A stretch of DNA of 64,000 nt, taken from the IMG/VR virus record IMGVR_UViG_3300032250_000184, positions 8,708-72,707 of that record; one strand, 5' to 3'. This DNA is from a virus (taxonomy: Duplodnaviria > Caudoviricetes). A program made the translations under genes and the position numbers. This document shows, piece after piece, positions 33,480 to 38,732 of this stretch (its first letter is position 1; each line of letters opens with the position of its first letter). Below the pieces are notes generated by a model, which saw nothing but the letters and a program-made list of their open reading frames with translations, ran no database searches and was not told the DNA's origin.

Positions 33480-33500
33480 TATACTATCTCCATTTTTGAT

Positions 33501-33574
33501 TGGTTGCGGATCCTGGAGTCGAACCAAGAACTGAGGATTATGAGTCCTCTGTGATACCTTTTCACCAACCCGCT
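33501..33574 (-). tRNA. tRNA-CAT, initiator-like (fMet)
   Basis: Cloverleaf, loop CTCATAA, A1.A72 mismatch, ends CCGCA-ACCA like fMet; anticodon stem lacks three G-C pairs. Confidence 0.85.
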
Positions 33575-33581
33575 ATATTTT

Positions 33582-33821
33582 TTAACCGTAAATAAAAATT
33601 ACTTCGTTGATAGGAACAACATATTGTTCATCTTCAACTTTTACCGCTTTGTTCCAATTTAAGAGCAACTCATCACCAATTGAAACCTCATCGACTTTAG
33701 GACCAAGAGCAACAACTACAGCTCGATCAGGTTCTTCTGTCCACTTTAAAATGATTCCAGACTCGGTTTGTTTTTCTGCTGCAATTCGTGTTACAATAAT
33801 GTTATCTCTTAACGGTTTCAT
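33582..33821 (-). CDS. groES: GroES/Cpn10 co-chaperonin (short)
   Basis: MKPLRDNIIV, TESGII, VVVALGP, V.IGD. Confidence 0.88.
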   Translation of the reverse strand: MKPLRDNIIVTRIAAEKQTESGIILKWTEEPDRAVVVALGPKVDEVSIGDELLLNWNKAVKVEDEQYVVPINEVIFIYG

Positions 33822-33848
33822 AATTACCTTTCATGTGAATTTGATGTT

Positions 33849-34205
33849 GCATTGTTGAGAATACTGTTTCGTGTTTAAAAGATTCTGGCCTGTGCTGGTT
33901 AACCCAGTCATTGCACGGATCTTTCCTCAATCGCATCGTTTACTCGGCATCAGCGTTCCGATATTTCCCAGATTTTGGGCTGACTTAACAAGGATAGTTC
34001 ACTTCCCTAACAGTTGGGATTGCTTACTCTTTCGCTCACATTCTCAACAATGCTCTCTGTCCCTAAACAGAGAACTTTGTGTCTTGTTACTTTTGGACGA
34101 CAATCCTCAGGCCTGAATGAGGATACTCGGACACGGCCATTCGTCTTTGTATTTTTAGCCTGTTTGTGCATAACAGAATAGGGATTATCTGTCATAGGCA
34201 TGGCA
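33849..34205 (-). ncRNA. Unidentified structured RNA between tRNA-Gly and groES
   Basis: Perfect 14-bp long-range stem 34053-34040/33862-33849 plus several hairpins; no credible ORF. Confidence 0.6.
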
Positions 34206-34213
34206 CCTCTGTT

Positions 34214-34287
34214 TGGAGCGGGATGTCAGAATCGAACTGACAACGAAAGGTTGGAAACCTTTAGTTTTACCATTAAACTAATCCCGC
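34214..34287 (-). tRNA. tRNA-Gly(TCC)
   Basis: Cloverleaf, loop TTTCCAA, U73, CCA. Confidence 0.95.
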
Positions 34288-34288
34288 A

Positions 34289-34423
34289 TTAATCTTTATC
34301 TTTTCTTGCTTTTTTCTTTGCTTCTAATCTATCTAATAAATCTAATAATTCTTGTTTTGTTAATGTTCTACCCCAGCTAGATGTTGTTGTGTTTGCTTCA
34401 GGAACATCTTTAACTTTTTTCAC
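34289..34423 (-). CDS. Small hypothetical protein (44 aa)
   Basis: GTG start; MKKVKDVPEANTTTSSWGRTLTKQELLDLLDRLEAKKKARKDKD; below track cutoff. Confidence 0.5.
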   Translation of the reverse strand: MKKVKDVPEANTTTSSWGRTLTKQELLDLLDRLEAKKKARKDKD

Positions 34424-34426
34424 GAC

Positions 34427-34642
34427 TTATTCTGTAGCTACTGGCTCTGCACTTTTGCCAAAAGTTTGTGTTTGTAAACGATTTGCAATAGCTCTTTTAA
34501 TTTTAGAAATGTGTTTCTTACGAGCACTATCTAACAATTTTGTTAATTGAGCAATGTTCAAAGGACCTAAACGTGGCTTGCCAGTTTTGGTCAACATAGG
34601 ATTTGCTTTACGAGTTTTTTGATTTGAACCTTTTCCTGCCAT
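34427..34642 (-). CDS. Small basic protein
   Basis: AAAGGA RBS; Lys/Arg-rich 71 aa. Confidence 0.7.
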   Translation of the reverse strand: MAGKGSNQKTRKANPMLTKTGKPRLGPLNIAQLTKLLDSARKKHISKIKRAIANRLQTQTFGKSAEPVATE

Positions 34643-34668
34643 AATATTTTATCCTTTAAACTAAAATT

Positions 34669-34735
34669 TGGAGCGGTGGTCTGCTATGCTCAGATAATTC
34701 AAGAGGGTATCTCAAATCGTACTATTACACACCGC
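34669..34735 (-). ncRNA. Degenerate tRNA-Gly-like RNA (67 nt, ACC anticodon-like)
   Basis: GCGGTG/CACCGC acceptor, U73-CCA, mini D arm, loop ATACCCT, T loop AGCATAG. Confidence 0.65.
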
Positions 34736-34803
34736 ATATCCTGCTTACCGGTTACAGGGTCACTTAATGACGGAAGTTTTGCTGTTTCACAACAGTAAAT
34801 CTA

Positions 34804-34851
34804 ATTATATACTTATCTATGATGTTTGTCAATAGATAATGTGGTACACTT
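34804..34851 (-). promoter_or_regulatory. Consensus sigma70 promoter with upstream 12-bp box and dyad over -35
   Basis: TTGACA-17-TATAAT; AAGTGTACCACA at 34851-34840; TTATCTAT/ATAGATAA inverted repeat. Confidence 0.8.
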
Positions 34852-34925
34852 GGTGGGCCAAGATAGAATTGAACTATCACTCCATCGATTATGAGTCGAT
34901 TGCTTTACCATTAAGCTACTGGCCC
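34851..34925 (-). tRNA. tRNA-CAT (Ile2 or Met)
   Basis: Cloverleaf, loop CTCATAA, CCA; Ile2 assignment is inference. Confidence 0.9.
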
Positions 34926-34926
34926 C

Positions 34927-35001
34927 TGGTCCGGCTAGCAGGAATCGAACCCACATTAAGGGAGTAGAAATCCCCTGTATTATCCATTATACTATAGCCA
35001 G
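34927..35001 (-). tRNA. tRNA-Arg(TCT)
   Basis: Cloverleaf, loop TTTCTAC, CCA. Confidence 0.92.
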
Positions 35002-35128
35002 AATTATTATAGTGAAGCCACACCAAGGTGAAATGAACTTATTAGTAAATCCTTGGAAATACCACAGAGGTTCCGGCTTACCAATCCCGACCTGTTAAGG
35101 TTTAGGTGTGCTTCACTATAATAATTCT
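35000..35128. repeat. 24-bp inverted repeat enclosing about 80 nt
   Basis: 35000-35024 pairs with 35105-35128 with a single bulged C. Confidence 0.8.
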
Positions 35129-35246
35129 TTTTAGATTTCTCTAATCGTCTTATAGCTTTGTTACTTTTTTTATGACTCCCAGCTTTACGAAACAATGCCA
35201 ATTTGACAAGATAGTTTCGTGGTTGAGGAGTATTTTTCTTCTTCAT
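35007..35246 (-). CDS. Small basic protein whose C-terminal half runs through the inverted-repeat element
   Basis: AAGGAGA RBS; MKKKNTPQPRNYLVKLALFRKAGSH; stop codon lies in the 3' arm. Confidence 0.6.
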   Translation of the reverse strand: MKKKNTPQPRNYLVKLALFRKAGSHKKSNKAIRRLEKSKKNYYSEAHLNLNRSGLVSRNLCGISKDLLISSFHLGVASL

Positions 35247-35264
35247 AATACTCTCCTTAAAAAA

Positions 35265-35339
35265 TGGTGGTAATGAGTAGATTCGAACTACTGACCTACT
35301 CCGTATGAAGGAGTTGCACTACCGCTGTGCTACATTACC
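35265..35339 (-). tRNA. tRNA-Met(CAT), probably elongator
   Basis: Cloverleaf, loop TTCATAC, CCA. Confidence 0.9.
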
Positions 35340-35340
35340 A

Positions 35341-35431
35341 TGGAGCTCGTTGTGTAAACGGGACGGCAAACTCCGTTGTTGTTCGGCCGAGAGGATCACC
35401 CAGCCCAATCATTACACTTGATACAACAATC
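35341..35431 (-). ncRNA. 91-nt CCA-terminated non-cloverleaf RNA
   Basis: Fills the Tyr-Met gap almost exactly; 7-bp acceptor-like stem, 6-bp extension, two hairpins. Confidence 0.55.
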
Positions 35432-35516
35432 TGGTGGGGAATACTGGGATCGAACCAGTCGTGCCGCAAGGCGGCGGATTTACAGTCCGCTGAATCACCA
35501 TTGATTCTTCTTCCCC
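35432..35516 (-). tRNA. tRNA-Tyr(GTA)
   Basis: Long variable arm, loop CTGTAAA, CCA. Confidence 0.93.
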
Positions 35517-35522
35517 AAAACT

Positions 35523-35599
35523 TGGCTCCCTAGCGTGGGTACGATCCACGGACCTTCTGATTAACAGTCAGACGCTACTACCAACTGAGCTACTAGGGA
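35523..35599 (-). tRNA. tRNA-Asn(GTT)
   Basis: Loop CTGTTAA, G73, CCA; atypical T loop ATCGTAC. Confidence 0.9.
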
Positions 35600-36237
35600 A
35601 TATTCTTAATTACTCTACCTTTTTTCCAACCTTCAGGTATGATATCGTTCTTTTTAATTCTAATACTTTCAATTCCATTTGTGATCCACATTGTACCATA
35701 TTGTGAATTGCCTAAACCTTTTTGGTGAATACTGTTTTTTTCACCTATTTTTTTCTTGGATTCTTCTTTGTGTTTTTTACCTATCCAAGAGTAAGTATCT
35801 TTCCACGTTCTTAACAAACCTTTTTTGTGTAGTTCTTTGGATTGTTTTCTATTTCTTTCAATATATTCTTCACGAAATTTTGAATCTTCATTTAATCTTT
35901 TTATTAAAGCATCACTACCTAATTTACCAATTCGTTTTCGTTGTTCGTCTGTTATATTTTTGTTTATAAAATCAAAACCACCATCACCACCTTTTTTCAA
36001 GTTGTATGTGTGTGGCCCAATTTCAACCAATTCTTTTTCTTTCTCAAACATTTCTTCGGCTGAAGAAGCTTCAAAAATAATTTCTTTAATAAAACTATCT
36101 ACACCATATTTTGATATAGCTCGTTTTAAATATTTACCGGAACCAAAATAACCATCATTTTTGTCTCTGGTTTTATGACAACCGATATAAATCTTATTGT
36201 TAATAGTATTTGTTATCTTATATACAAGGTAAAACAT
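35593..36237 (-). CDS. Seg-like GIY-YIG homing endonuclease in the tRNA cluster
   Basis: YLVYKITNTINNKIYIGCH...YFGSG; HKEESKKKIG NUMOD3-like; WITNG. Confidence 0.88.
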   Translation of the reverse strand: MFYLVYKITNTINNKIYIGCHKTRDKNDGYFGSGKYLKRAISKYGVDSFIKEIIFEASSAEEMFEKEKELVEIGPHTYNLKKGGDGGFDFINKNITDEQRKRIGKLGSDALIKRLNEDSKFREEYIERNRKQSKELHKKGLLRTWKDTYSWIGKKHKEESKKKIGEKNSIHQKGLGNSQYGTMWITNGIESIRIKKNDIIPEGWKKGRVIKNIP

Positions 36238-36281
36238 ATTTTCTCCCAATTATATAATATATATAAAAGTTCGATATTGTA

Positions 36282-36352
36282 TGCTCTGTGAGAGAATCGA
36301 ACTCCCATATCAGGATTACAAATCCAGCGTAATACCATTATACTAACAGAGC
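36282..36352 (-). tRNA. tRNA-Thr(TGT), no encoded CCA
   Basis: Cloverleaf, loop TTTGTAA; discriminator A followed by TAC. Confidence 0.88.
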
Positions 36353-36356
36353 CTAG

Positions 36357-36431
36357 TGGTACACGATACCAGAATCGAACTGGTCTTACCGCCGTGAAAG
36401 GGCGGTGTCCTAACCGATAGACGAATCGTGC
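36357..36431 (-). tRNA. tRNA-Glu(TTC)
   Basis: Cloverleaf, loop CTTTCAC, CCA. Confidence 0.93.
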
Positions 36432-36444
36432 ATCTAAGTAAAAC

Positions 36445-36473
36445 ATTATACATCAATCCACACAATAAGTCAA
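36445..36473 (-). promoter_or_regulatory. sigma70 promoter internal to the tRNA array
   Basis: TTGACT-17-TATAAT just before tRNA-Glu. Confidence 0.75.
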
Positions 36474-36497
36474 GCGGCTGTTGTATGGAAACAACAC

Positions 36498-36572
36498 TGG
36501 TCGGAGTAGAAAGAATCGAACTTTCGAAATCTCGCTCCCAAAGCGAGTGACATACCACTTGCCGATACTCCG
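36498..36572 (-). tRNA. tRNA-Pro(TGG)
   Basis: Cloverleaf, loop TTTGGGA, CCA. Confidence 0.93.
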
Positions 36573-36590
36573 TTTAACTTTACAATAACC

Positions 36591-36664
36591 GGGCATCCCG
36601 TGAGAGAATCGAACTCCCGCCAAGGCGTTTGGAGTGCCTTGTGCTACCATTACACCAACGAGAA
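36591..36664 (-). tRNA. tRNA-Trp(CCA), ends CCC rather than CCA
   Basis: Loop CTCCAAA, G73, T1.T72 mismatch. Confidence 0.85.
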
Positions 36665-36666
36665 CT

Positions 36667-36753
36667 TGGCGGAAAGTATTGGGATCGAACCAATGCACCC
36701 ATTTCTGAATGACGGTTTAGCAAACCGTTGCCTTGCCACTCGGCCAACTTTCC
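36667..36753 (-). tRNA. tRNA-Ser(GCT)
   Basis: Long variable arm, loop TTGCTAA, G73, CCA. Confidence 0.93.
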
Positions 36754-36759
36754 GTAATC

Positions 36760-36847
36760 TGGAGGAAGATGTGAGATTCGAACTCACGGACCTATTACAG
36801 CCTCTAGTTTTCAAGACTAGTGCAATCGACCACTCTGCCAATCTTCC
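36760..36847 (-). tRNA. tRNA-Ser(TGA)
   Basis: Long variable arm, loop CTTGAAA, CCA; U73. Confidence 0.92.
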
Positions 36848-36849
36848 TT

Positions 36850-36926
36850 TGGTGGAGGTGACAGAGAATCGAACCTGCGACCTACTGCTTGCAAAGCAGC
36901 CGCTCTACCAACTGAGCTACACCCCC
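36850..36926 (-). tRNA. tRNA-Ala(TGC)
   Basis: G3.U70 pair, loop TTTGCAA, CCA. Confidence 0.93.
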
Positions 36927-36961
36927 AAAAACAAAAAACCCAAGATGTTTAGTCTTGGGTT
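36927..36961 (-). terminator. Intrinsic terminator (attenuator) immediately 5' of tRNA-Ala
   Basis: AACCCAAGA-ctaaaca-TCTTGGGTT then TTTTGTTTTT. Confidence 0.85.
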
Positions 36962-36986
36962 CGTATAAACTTTGTTACTTAAAAAT

Positions 36987-37061
36987 TTACAAACGAACCC
37001 CTACCTGCCACCCTGCGGCTGGTGATGTATAATTGGATGGGCTTGTAAATATATTTTTCAT
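36987..37061 (-). CDS. Leaderless leader peptide MKNIFTSPSNYTSPAAGWQVGVRL
   Basis: ATG is 7 nt after the -10 box; last codons overlap antiterminator strand GGGTTCGT. Confidence 0.65.
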   Translation of the reverse strand: MKNIFTSPSNYTSPAAGWQVGVRL

Positions 37062-37067
37062 TGTTCT

Positions 37068-37096
37068 ATTATATAGGATCTTTTTTGTCTTGTCAA
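37068..37096 (-). promoter_or_regulatory. Consensus sigma70 promoter of the tRNA operon
   Basis: TTGACA-17-TATAAT. Confidence 0.85.
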
Positions 37097-37109
37097 GCAA
37101 TTTTATTAA

Positions 37110-37607
37110 TTATTTCCAACCAAGCGGTTCTATTTCTATTGGTGAGTCAGGATCAACAACATGGTCAAATACTTCCCACAACTTTTCTTTTACTGCAAAC
37201 TTTGTAAACAATCCAGATTGCATCCCGTAAGCTTCTACTTCCCATGGTTGGAACCAATAATCTGGTTCCAAAACTTTACTACCTTTCCATCGAGTAAGAT
37301 TTATATTAACATCACCATGTACATACTGTTTAATATGTACCATCTCATGACTTAGTGTTTTTAATATCTCAGCTGCACCAATACCTGGATGTAATTCTAT
37401 TTCAAATTGTCTTGGTTTATTACTACGACTAAACTCTACAACTGAAGCATATCCGTGTGCATTAATTTTTGAACTGAACTTAATTCTTAAAAAAATGTTT
37501 TCCAACATCCTAGGTGTCATTAAAGATTCTGCGTAAAACAGAGCAGCCCTTTTCACATAGGGACGGAAACGTTGTTTATCGGGACAACCGACTATACTTA
37601 ACTGCAT
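37110..37607 (-). CDS. HExxH zinc metallopeptidase-like protein
   Basis: LSHEMVHIKQY, PWEVEAY; AAGGAGA RBS before ATG 37607. Confidence 0.75.
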   Translation of the reverse strand: MQLSIVGCPDKQRFRPYVKRAALFYAESLMTPRMLENIFLRIKFSSKINAHGYASVVEFSRSNKPRQFEIELHPGIGAAEILKTLSHEMVHIKQYVHGDVNINLTRWKGSKVLEPDYWFQPWEVEAYGMQSGLFTKFAVKEKLWEVFDHVVDPDSPIEIEPLGWK

Positions 37608-37670
37608 TTTAGGTCTCTCCTTAGTAAATTGACCCAATAATTGCATTAATCCGTTGATACTCACACTGCT

Positions 37671-37754: not shown

Positions 37755-38139
37755 GCCCCTGTGAATCCCTGTAGGAATCACGGTAATATACCTTTTTGAT
37801 GCCTGCGGTATATATTTGTTTAGCACAATCAATGCAAGGTGCATGGGTCAGGAACATCATGGAACCATCTCCAGACTCGGAACTCTTGGCCAACTTAGCG
37901 ATGGCATTGGCCTCAGCGTGAATCACCTCAGGTTTGGTTTTTGAGAATACCGTATCATCTGATAGTACGGTATAGTTTTCACATTCATTTGTCCAACCAG
38001 CAGGCATTCCATTATAACCAATAGAGATAATTCTATCTTCTTTAACTACAATCGCACCTACCTGTAACCGTTTGGCTGAAGATAATTTGGCAAACCTTTC
38101 GGCCACGTCCATGTAGGCATCAATAAATTTTTGTTTCAT
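37705..38139 (-). CDS. cd: dCMP deaminase
   Basis: IGYNG, HAEANAI, PCIDC. Confidence 0.92.
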   Translation of the reverse strand: MKQKFIDAYMDVAERFAKLSSAKRLQVGAIVVKEDRIISIGYNGMPAGWTNECENYTVLSDDTVFSKTKPEVIHAEANAIAKLAKSSESGDGSMMFLTHAPCIDCAKQIYTAGIKKVYYRDSYRDSQGLDFLTKCDIIIEQIQK

Positions 38140-38732
38140 CGTTTTGTAAAACTTTCAATAATTCTAATAAATGACCATACATTATTCCTAATGGATGAAT
38201 CATAAAGTGCCATCTGTTCTAATACAGCATCTTCAATTCCAGCACTAAATTGATTTTTCGAAATTTTAATTGTGGCTTCTTTTTCGAAAGAATCTAAAGT
38301 AACAATCGTCATGTTATTCTTTTTGGCAATATGTTGTATCGTTTTATTCTCCGACAAACAATGCATGAATAATGATTCCGAACCCATTGCTCTGGCCCAA
38401 ATAGCACCACGATTAAACAATTCTTGGCCAATTTTTTGATCACGATAATCAGGACTAACCGTTAATCCTAATTCAGCAGATTTTGTTTTTTTGTCGTAAG
38501 CAACATGACAAGAAGCTACAAAATTGCATCCATCTTCCACAACAAACCACATATTCTTAAAACCATAATGTTCGAAAGATTTATCACAAATGTATCTTTC
38601 TATGATATCATCATTAACAATGTTGCCAAATCTCAATCTCCTATCATCACCACGAATGTCATCATAGAAGTGTTTTACCAATCTATCAATGTCCATTTTG
38701 TGTGGAACTAATTTTCTAGGAATCATTACCAA
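38136..38732 (-). CDS. GNAT family acetyltransferase
   Basis: LRFG, AELGLTVSPDYRDQKIGQELF motif A, N...IAKK. Confidence 0.8.
   Translation of the reverse strand: MVMIPRKLVPHKMDIDRLVKHFYDDIRGDDRRLRFGNIVNDDIIERYICDKSFEHYGFKNMWFVVEDGCNFVASCHVAYDKKTKSAELGLTVSPDYRDQKIGQELFNRGAIWARAMGSESLFMHCLSENKTIQHIAKKNNMTIVTLDSFEKEATIKISKNQFSAGIEDAVLEQMALYDSSIRNNVWSFIRIIESFTKR

Follow-up and report, generated by a model that had tools for sequence, protein, structure and literature searches.

What is a 67-nt, tRNA-like gene doing in a phage that also encodes a normal tRNA-Gly? The locus lies in a 64,000-nt stretch of DNA, called the window, from a 72.7-kb IMG/VR record that is 43% complete. The record belongs to an uncultured T4-like phage, with a DNA polymerase ~51% identical to cyanomyovirus gp43, and the element is located in a cluster of 14 tRNA genes. 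A preliminary description made from the sequence had reported a degenerate tRNA-Gly-like RNA at this position, and we confirm that observation. Our best overall explanation, to which we assign a probability of roughly 45%, is that the phage transcribes the element independently, as the gene of a miniaturised tRNA-Gly derivative that would act as a glycine carrier off the ribosome.

All of the sequence features first noted are present on the minus strand, namely G1–C72, C2–G71, U73, CCA, a small D arm lacking GG, and a T loop lacking TTC. The acceptor stem (GCGGUG/CACCGC) has 6 + 1 bp with a U7·C66 mismatch, and the 3′ end consists of U73 and an encoded CCA. The D stem has 3 bp and the loop AUAG, the T stem has 4 bp and the loop AGCAUAG, and the long stem has 7 bp plus a 32:38 pair under the cap AUACCCU, which leaves UACCC as the pentaloop here. 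This cloverleaf is the unaided fold of the element (MFE −16.6 kcal/mol, z −2.05; 7 of 200 shuffled sequences fold equally well). A covariance model built from relatives, R1, scores the element at 90.9 bits (E 2e-25), well outside what chance would give; in the rest of the window its best match, the genuine tRNA-Gly, reaches 26 bits. ARAGORN made no call at the element in its bacterial, relaxed, or mitochondrial modes, nor did Rfam, including RF00005, give a match there at the gathering threshold or at E ≤ 10. ARAGORN likewise called none of 223 family copies. Since the family is missed by both ARAGORN and Rfam, it is probably unannotated in such records.

Table 1. Positions of the tRNA-Gly-derived element and of the surrounding features discussed in the text, numbered from the first base of the window.
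Feature	Positions	Strand	Basis or remark
tRNA-Gly-derived RNA, class 1, 67 nt	34669–34735	−	Sequence, unaided fold, model R1, covariation in relatives
Sigma-70 consensus promoter, TTGACA-17-TATAAT	34804–34832	−	12/12 match; dedicated to the element
Leader between promoter and G1, 68 nt, three small hairpins	34736–34803	−	Predicted fold
Canonical tRNA-Gly(UCC)	34214–34287	−	ARAGORN, Rfam; second-best R1 match
Very basic ORF, 71 aa	34427–34642	−	Starts 26 nt after CCA
HExxH zincin-like protein, 184 aa	37110–37664	−	Gene upstream of the element in most relatives
DruA-type GNAT (DruA-long), 421 aa	45672–46937	−	PF14236, 74.2 bits; conjectural consumer
DruA-type paralogue (DruA-short), 368 aa	25797–26903	−	PF14236, 36.2 bits; immediately after the gp41 helicase gene
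GNAT named in the preliminary description	38136–38732

A loose search pattern found relatives in more than 120 IMG/VR contigs among the matches listed, with at least 88 distinct sequences. The family members are 65–70 nt long and fall into at least three sub-classes, and the contigs studied closely are T4-like. Tandem arrays of class 1, class 2, and canonical tRNA-Gly genes are frequent. Model R1 was built from class 1 only and misses class-3 copies. This third class was found by a structure-only scanner, for which pairing, a CC pentaloop, and CCA were obligatory while the discriminator and the acceptor sequence could vary; the class carries A3–U70 and still has G1–C72, C2–G71, and U73. Run on 1.8 Mb of shuffled genomes, the scanner gave no matches. 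A search pattern applied to bacterial and archaeal genome contigs gave at least 120 stretches, only 1 of the 80 listed reaching 20 bits or more with R1. These matches are due to chance, and among the matches listed there is no evidence of the family in cellular genomes. Neither class-1 nor class-2 copies had a blastn match in 50,697 GenBank phage records, and our literature search found no description of this phage RNA family.

Comparison of the relatives establishes that the element is a selected structured RNA derived from tRNA-Gly, with a cloverleaf kept by compensatory change. In a MAFFT alignment of 44 class-1 sequences, which is essentially ungapped, 95.8% of cells are paired, compared with 31–57% when the 3′ partner is slid, and double-sided changes occur at 12 of the 21 pairs. 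Across the classes, 73 distinct rows give 95.4% paired cells and covariation at 17/21 pairs; this alignment was fitted to the covariance model and leans towards it, whereas the MAFFT result is free of that bias. The relatives thus clearly do not show the random decay, devoid of compensatory stem changes, against which the preliminary description had set its reading. A decaying tRNA pseudogene is excluded by covariation in all four helices. The element arose beside genuine tRNA-Gly genes: a tRNA-Gly gene lies within 120 nt of 76 of 223 copies, and in the window a normal tRNA-Gly(TCC) is indeed encoded nearby, as first described. Canonical tRNA-Gly is presumed to be the evolutionary source of the element.

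We examined which bases the family holds constant. G1–C72, C2–G71, G3–C70, and U73 are the same in 69 distinct copies, CCA is present in 69/69, and C35 and C36 are invariant in 69/69. The first search patterns had fixed the acceptor bases, and the constancy of these bases was therefore rechecked by two independent searches. A scan with the internal core only, in which the acceptor was free, returned 77 genuine matches, all 77 with GCGG...CCGC-U-CCA. The further variants from the structure-only scanner all have G1–C72, C2–G71, and U73. The only acceptor identity pairs that change are 3:70 (A–U in class 3) and 4:69 (A–U once), and both stay paired. The element thus has the complete identity set of bacterial (αβ)2 GlyRS (G1–C72, C2–G71, U73, C35, and C36), for which 3:70 and 4:69 are minor determinants, and the claim that GlyRS identity elements are kept extends from this single sequence to the 69 distinct copies and to those found with an unconstrained acceptor.

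A co-crystal structure of bacterial GlyRS with tRNAGly shows base-specific contacts to the first four pairs and U73 (PMC9908026). Mutation costs 11–43-fold at 1:72, 5–10-fold at 2:71, and 1–4-fold at 3:70, and 105–1500-fold at C35 and 21–41-fold at C36 (PMC9908026). The family's invariant set matches these strong determinants, and the pairs that drift include 3:70, the weakest of the three that were mutated. Host (αβ)2 GlyRS would charge the element with glycine, a step we infer because the bases read by the enzyme are the bases held constant. U73 also shields Gly-tRNAGly from DTD (PMC6097841), which would matter for a species that lacks EF-Tu protection.

The preliminary description had read ATACCCT as an anticodon-like loop. 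Its sequence and the C35 and C36 within it stand, but a 7-nt loop does not. Bases 32 and 38 form a standard pair in 70/70 cells (AU 39, UA 15, GC 13, CG 2, UG 1), and because they are always paired, and covary, the arm is better described as an 8-bp stem with a pentaloop, N-N-C-C-N. In the 69 distinct copies, U is the commonest base at position 33 (47, against 16 with G and 6 with C), so that 22 copies lack U33. All four bases occur at position 34, with A (36) and U (27) far ahead of C (2) and G (1). At position 37, C predominates (49), followed by A (19) and a single U. ACC is the commonest triplet in the family, and base 34 is the sole difference between some near-identical copies. U33, a purine at 37, a fixed base 34, and an open 7-nt loop are all features of decoding, and none of them is kept, in agreement with the loss of translation features initially proposed. 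The pentaloop may hinder anticodon recognition by GlyRS.

The remainder of the molecule is compact. The D loop is AUAG or AUAGA and the T loop is AGCAWAG or UGCRAAU; G18G19 and T54-Ψ55-C56 are not kept, and G53–C61 and C56 are kept. The linker after the acceptor stem is short or absent, the variable region has 1–2 nt, and the T stem is cut to 4 bp in class 1. The lengths of the two helical arms are roughly preserved, with a 3-bp D stem on 7–8 bp of anticodon stem and a 6–7-bp acceptor stem on 4–5 bp of T stem. Such a compact core can still work on the ribosome in tRNAPyl and mt-tRNASer(UCN) (PMC7609411), so that the loss of GG and TΨC is by itself no proof of lost translation, and the case against decoding rests on the anticodon loop and on the canonical tRNA-Gly next door.

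This case must be weighed against the view that the element is a working compact tRNA-Gly that supplements the host tRNA-Gly, as tRNAPyl or mitochondrial tRNAs work in decoding. The likeness to tRNAPyl and mt-tRNASer(UCN) lies in an acceptor–D linker of 0–1 nt, a GG-less D loop of 4–5 nt, a longer anticodon stem, and a very short variable region, and it extends to the missing TΨC in tRNAPyl; mt-tRNASer(UCN) keeps G18, G19, and TΨC (PMC7609411). Classes 2 and 3 moreover have UCC with A37, and one variant (L206) keeps a canonical UUCGAUU T loop. However, tRNAPyl and mt-tRNASer(UCN) both have a 7-nt anticodon loop and decode, whereas the phage RNA has a 32:38 Watson–Crick pair whose covariation includes G–C, and leaves positions 33, 34, and 37 unconstrained. 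To our knowledge, no bacterial tRNA-Gly has an ACC anticodon. The element is, moreover, usually accompanied by a gene for a canonical tRNA-Gly (UCC or GCC). Taken together, the closed 32:38 pair, the missing U33 and frequent C37, the ACC triplet, the switches at base 34, and the adjoining canonical gene suggest that the element is not used for decoding on the ribosome, and we regard a decoding role as improbable. Judged from these sequence comparisons, it is likely that GlyRS charges the element and that the ribosome does not use it. Its role probably lies outside protein synthesis, as a carrier of glycine or as a decoy.

The signals around the element support the idea that it forms its own expression unit. 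The consensus promoter first described for it is a perfect match, and a sigma-70-like promoter is present in 94 of 141 distinct upstream contexts of relatives, 80 of these matching at 11/12 or better. The −10 hexamer ends 8–9 nt before G1 in 79 of the 94 promoter-bearing contexts, and base −1 is U (T) in 136/141 and in the window copy. The window copy is unusual in bearing a structured leader of 68 nt. This leader is found in only a small subset of relatives (ten copies, four sequence versions), in which the middle hairpin keeps its pairing while its sequence changes. In most relatives the primary transcript would begin at G1 or a few bases upstream of it, and here 68 nt upstream; RNase P would trim the 5′ end, given the U at −1, and the 3′ cut would fall after the encoded CCA.

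The same arrangement could be read as a cis-acting signal for processing or stability of a downstream mRNA. tRNA-like punctuation is a known processing device, and the element lies at the 5′ end of its transcription unit with no terminator before the next ORF. Punctuation, however, would not need invariant C35, C36, and U73, and what follows the element varies from the 71-aa ORF to tRNA-Gly, other tRNAs, or Cpn10. A cis-acting signal, like the pseudogene with which we group it, is very improbable. We also considered the element specifically as a cis element of the 71-aa ORF and rejected this, as the ORF is missing downstream in 79 of 118 independently found copies; among these assessable, pattern-found copies only 39 have it.

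The 71-aa protein has relatives in 50 viral contigs. It has no Pfam or PHROG match, and the ESM Atlas yields only viral hypothetical proteins for it. In loci reached through this protein, the place of the element is filled by diverged versions of it, every one with a promoter of its own, or, in some of these loci, by a genuine tRNA-Gly, tRNA-Tyr, or tRNA-Thr.

Another possible role is that of a ribonucleoprotein component, in which the RNA binds GlyRS or a phage protein, such as the basic 71-aa protein, and regulates or recruits it while carrying no glycine. Binding alone, with no catalysis, would preserve these identity bases too, and roughly between a third and a half of copies are followed by the 71-aa ORF. 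The poliovirus IRES is reported to mimic the tRNA-Gly anticodon arm and to recruit GlyRS (PMC3384309). Against such a role, the encoded CCA, U73, and full acceptor stem make an aminoacylatable end, and the 71-aa ORF, with its uninformative database matches, is so often missing downstream. We therefore consider a purely binding RNA rather unlikely, though less so than decoding.

If the element is a charged carrier that stays off the ribosome, something should consume its glycine. The gene most often found upstream encodes the 184-aa HExxH protein, which lies directly upstream in 99 of 150 loci; here the 14-tRNA cluster intervenes. H106, E107, and H110 are invariant, the AF2 model has a pLDDT of 87.6, and Foldseek gives weak matches to leishmanolysin, YbeY, SPRTN, and Wss1. 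We rejected this protein as a Mom-like transferase, given its invariant HExxH and its predicted fold, which is zincin-like and not GNAT. Nor is it tightly linked to the element: in polymerase-anchored loci, 8 have the gene and the element, 8 the element only, and 3 the gene only. The separate GNAT that the preliminary description had proposed as a transferase is present in only 3 of 204 element-bearing loci and was also rejected as a partner. Among the 22 commonest clusters of neighbouring genes, none is Fem-like.

The two DUF4338-like proteins named in the same description fare better. Both are genuine members of Pfam PF14236 (DruA/DUF4338; gathering cut-off, 27 bits), and DUF4338 is a GNAT domain (PMC10853773). 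The AF2 model of DruA-long (pLDDT 94) has Mu Mom (8bv8) as its top structural match (Z 9.9, rmsd 4.1, 186 residues), tied with generic GNATs. In a second structure search, Mom again ranked first, of 48,161 (Z 9.4), within 1 Z unit of generic GNATs, and FemA was a weak match (Z 8.0, rank 23). Neither a PDB profile search nor tblastn gave a sequence link between DruA and Mom, and hhalign gave a probability of 1%. On these models, the similarity of DruA to Mom appears to be at the level of the fold only. A Mom-family PF25680 gene was found in none of 21 records (the phage's own and 20 relatives, 8 of them at least 90% complete), and tblastn with Mu Mom found nothing.

The proposed co-occurrence of the RNA with DUF4338 genes holds as a count and is thin as phylogeny. 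The element is present in 7/7 DruA-bearing large records (G001, G003, G004, G005, G008, G026, and G027) and missing in 4/4 records that lack DruA (G006, G007, G010, and G016); DruA-long is in 7/7 and DruA-short in 5/7 of the element-bearing large records checked. However, G006 and G007 are probably one sister lineage, and neither G010 nor G016 belongs to this phage group, as the former has no DNA polymerase match and the latter only a distant one (28% identity), so that 7/7 versus 0/4 amounts to roughly one evolutionary contrast. The DruA genes lie 8–18 kb from the element and do not adjoin it. Phold finds DruA-like proteins in six Synechococcus phages, and as no GenBank phage copy of the RNA was found by blastn, DruA does not need the RNA.

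The precedent that had been invoked from phage Mu is real: Mom uses Gly-tRNAGly, of any isoacceptor, to attach glycine to DNA adenine (PMC13219725). The likeness to our proposal is that a phage GNAT takes glycine from a charged tRNA-Gly, of which it probably reads the acceptor end only. A second likeness comes from the ssrA islands of Dehalococcoides, where a tRNA-Gly-like locus lies inside mom homologues and is thus physically tied to them (PMC3146451). Unlike in the Mu system, only the DruA-family proteins resemble Mom here. A further difference from the scheme proposed for the phage RNA is that every host tRNA-Gly isoacceptor will serve Mom, which does without a private tRNA. By analogy with Mom, the glycyl ester may be consumed off the ribosome, and the likeliest consumer would be one of the phage's DruA-type GNATs, putatively of Mom fold. 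This last step is a tentative one and, at present, doubtful; it is our leading guess and ranks ahead of a decoy.

As a decoy or sponge, the element would mimic the acceptor end of tRNA-Gly, charged or uncharged, and soak up toxins of host defence that recognise this end, such as FaRel2-like toxSAS pyrophosphokinases or AtaT/TacT-like GNAT toxins, so that the real tRNA-Gly pool is spared early in infection. FaRel2 selects tRNAGly through G1–C72, C2–G71, G4–C69, and Pu5–Py68, and toxSAS enzymes act in antiphage immunity (PMC11559606). AtaT acetylates Gly-tRNAGly, and TacT-family toxins acetylate aminoacyl-tRNAs with narrow tRNA specificities (PMC7595197, PMC9177977). The strong, early-type consensus promoter would suit such a role, as would a position in a variable tRNA region that is missing beside the polymerase gene of the closest relative; some loci hold two or three diverged paralogues of the element in tandem, which fits an arms-race locus. 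Phage tRNAs are known to counter tRNA-targeting defences such as PARIS and retron systems (PMC11559606, PMC12409363), and these are likewise phage-encoded tRNA variants selected by host attack on tRNAs. They are, however, functional isoacceptors that escape the toxin and bring decoding back, whereas the element looks non-decoding and could serve as a decoy only. A stoichiometric decoy is also a poor answer to a catalytic toxin, and toxins that read only the acceptor would not select invariant C35 and C36, unless the decoy must be charged. Furthermore, 5:68 is mostly U–A and not the Pu–Py preferred by FaRel2, and for these uncultured phages we know of neither an anti-toxin phenotype nor a corresponding host defence. 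We therefore view a decoy as unlikely, yet as the strongest of the alternatives to a glycine carrier.

One of the closest parallels to a dedicated glycine carrier is found in staphylococci, where non-proteinogenic tRNA-Gly species occur as extra paralogues beside the normal ones, keep glycine identity, and differ in their D and T loops. Their glycine probably goes to a GNAT-fold transferase (FmhB/FemA/FemB) and not to the ribosome. The phage RNA resembles them in being an extra tRNA-Gly-like paralogue with deviant D and T loops and with glycine identity kept. The staphylococcal species, however, are cloverleaves of standard size whose UCC anticodon lies in a 7-nt loop with U33, whereas the phage RNA has 65–70 nt, 3 bp in the D stem, and a pentaloop on an 8-bp stem, is missed by ARAGORN and Rfam, is encoded by a phage, and is seen with no Fem-type gene. 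Phage T4 itself makes two stable RNAs, C and D (species 1 and 2), which are small, CCA-ended, processed by RNase P, and encoded among the T4 tRNA genes. We know of no function or amino-acid identity for them, and, compared by description only, they are longer (~120–140 nt) than the element.

Within the literature searched, no virus-encoded non-proteinogenic tRNA has been described before, and the element would be the first if it is charged yet stays off the ribosome. This would mean that phages bring private carriers for tRNA-dependent chemistry in addition to codon-matching tRNAs. The family is also a natural experiment on which features of tRNA-Gly GlyRS needs, and a handle on the function of DruA-type GNATs. 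More speculatively, and with odds below those we give to a DruA-type consumer for this phage, aquatic T4-like phages may have dedicated non-ribosomal carrier RNAs, miniaturised from tRNA-Gly, that are charged by the host GlyRS, are invisible to the ribosome, and give glycine to DruA-family GNATs, which would modify phage DNA, or another target, with a glycine-derived group. If instead the element is a decoy, it would represent a novel form of counter-defence, one directed at toxins that recognise the acceptor end of tRNA. Should the DruA reading be true, it would provide the first biochemical activity for DruA/DUF4338 proteins, including the DruA of the Druantia defence system.

We compared the window with L230, the relative whose DNA polymerase is most similar (98% identical at the protein level). 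Across window positions 33500-37100, similarity to L230 ends entirely upstream of 33492, and no tRNA genes are present there in L230, indicating that the whole tRNA cluster is a variable insert.

Directly upstream of the element, the 67-nt tRNA-Gly-derived RNA, the gene in 99 of 150 loci encodes a 184-aa protein whose HExxH and PWExEA motifs are invariant. Its predicted fold is zincin-like and weakly matches those of leishmanolysin, YbeY, SPRTN, and Wss1. The 198-aa GNAT gene is inserted between the dCMP deaminase gene on one side and small conserved ORFs on the other. Only 3 of 204 related loci carry this GNAT, which marks it as a rare accessory gene. Two small ORFs occupy the interval between the element and the canonical tRNA-Gly(UCC); the family of the 71-aa ORF spans at least 50 viral contigs and has no annotation in Pfam, PHROG, or Atlas.

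Features of the element's neighborhood and related RNA copies (window positions unless a record or locus is named)
Feature	Position	Strand	Description
44-aa ORF	34289-34423	-	element/tRNA-Gly interval
71-aa ORF	34427-34642	-	very basic; element/tRNA-Gly interval
Leader	34736-34803	-	68-nt promoter-to-element gap; three hairpins
91-nt spacer	35340-35431	-	3' end U-CCA; exactly fills the tRNA-Tyr/tRNA-Met gap
SegE-like GIY-YIG homing endonuclease gene	35593-36249		within tRNA cluster
184-aa protein	37110-37664	-	phrog_10499; HExxH and PWExEA motifs
GNAT acetyltransferase	38136-38732	-	198 aa; Pfam Acetyltransf_1, 32 bits
Third-sub-class RNA	G004 26515	-	record coordinate
Third-sub-class RNA	G008 63684	-	record coordinate
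Third-sub-class RNA	G026 134117	-	record coordinate
Third-sub-class RNA	G027 44961	+	record coordinate
Intermediate RNA form	L206:1968-2035	+	class-1 loop with canonical T loop

Folding of the tRNA-Tyr/tRNA-Met spacer was no better than that of its shuffles (z -0.68; 47 of 200 equally good), so the window alone gives this spacer no structural support. For the leader upstream of the element, pairing in the middle hairpin is kept despite sequence changes among the copies compared, and the last hairpin, CCUG-UAACCGGUAAG-CAGG, has the same sequence in 10 copies. The leader may serve as a processing site or constitute a small structured RNA in its own right.

Four copies in large related viral records, 65-66 nt in length and with the loop GUCCA, make up a third sub-class of the RNA; none was detected by R1, the covariance model built from class-1 copies. 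Their T loops read UGGGAAU, UGAGAAU, or CGGAAAC, and the acceptor stem carries A3-U70 in three of the four, with G3-C70 retained in the G026 copy. The form at the related locus L206 shares the AUACCCU loop and small D arm of class 1, yet has a canonical UUCGAUU T loop and the D-loop GG. It looks like a step from a normal tRNA-Gly towards the miniaturized form.
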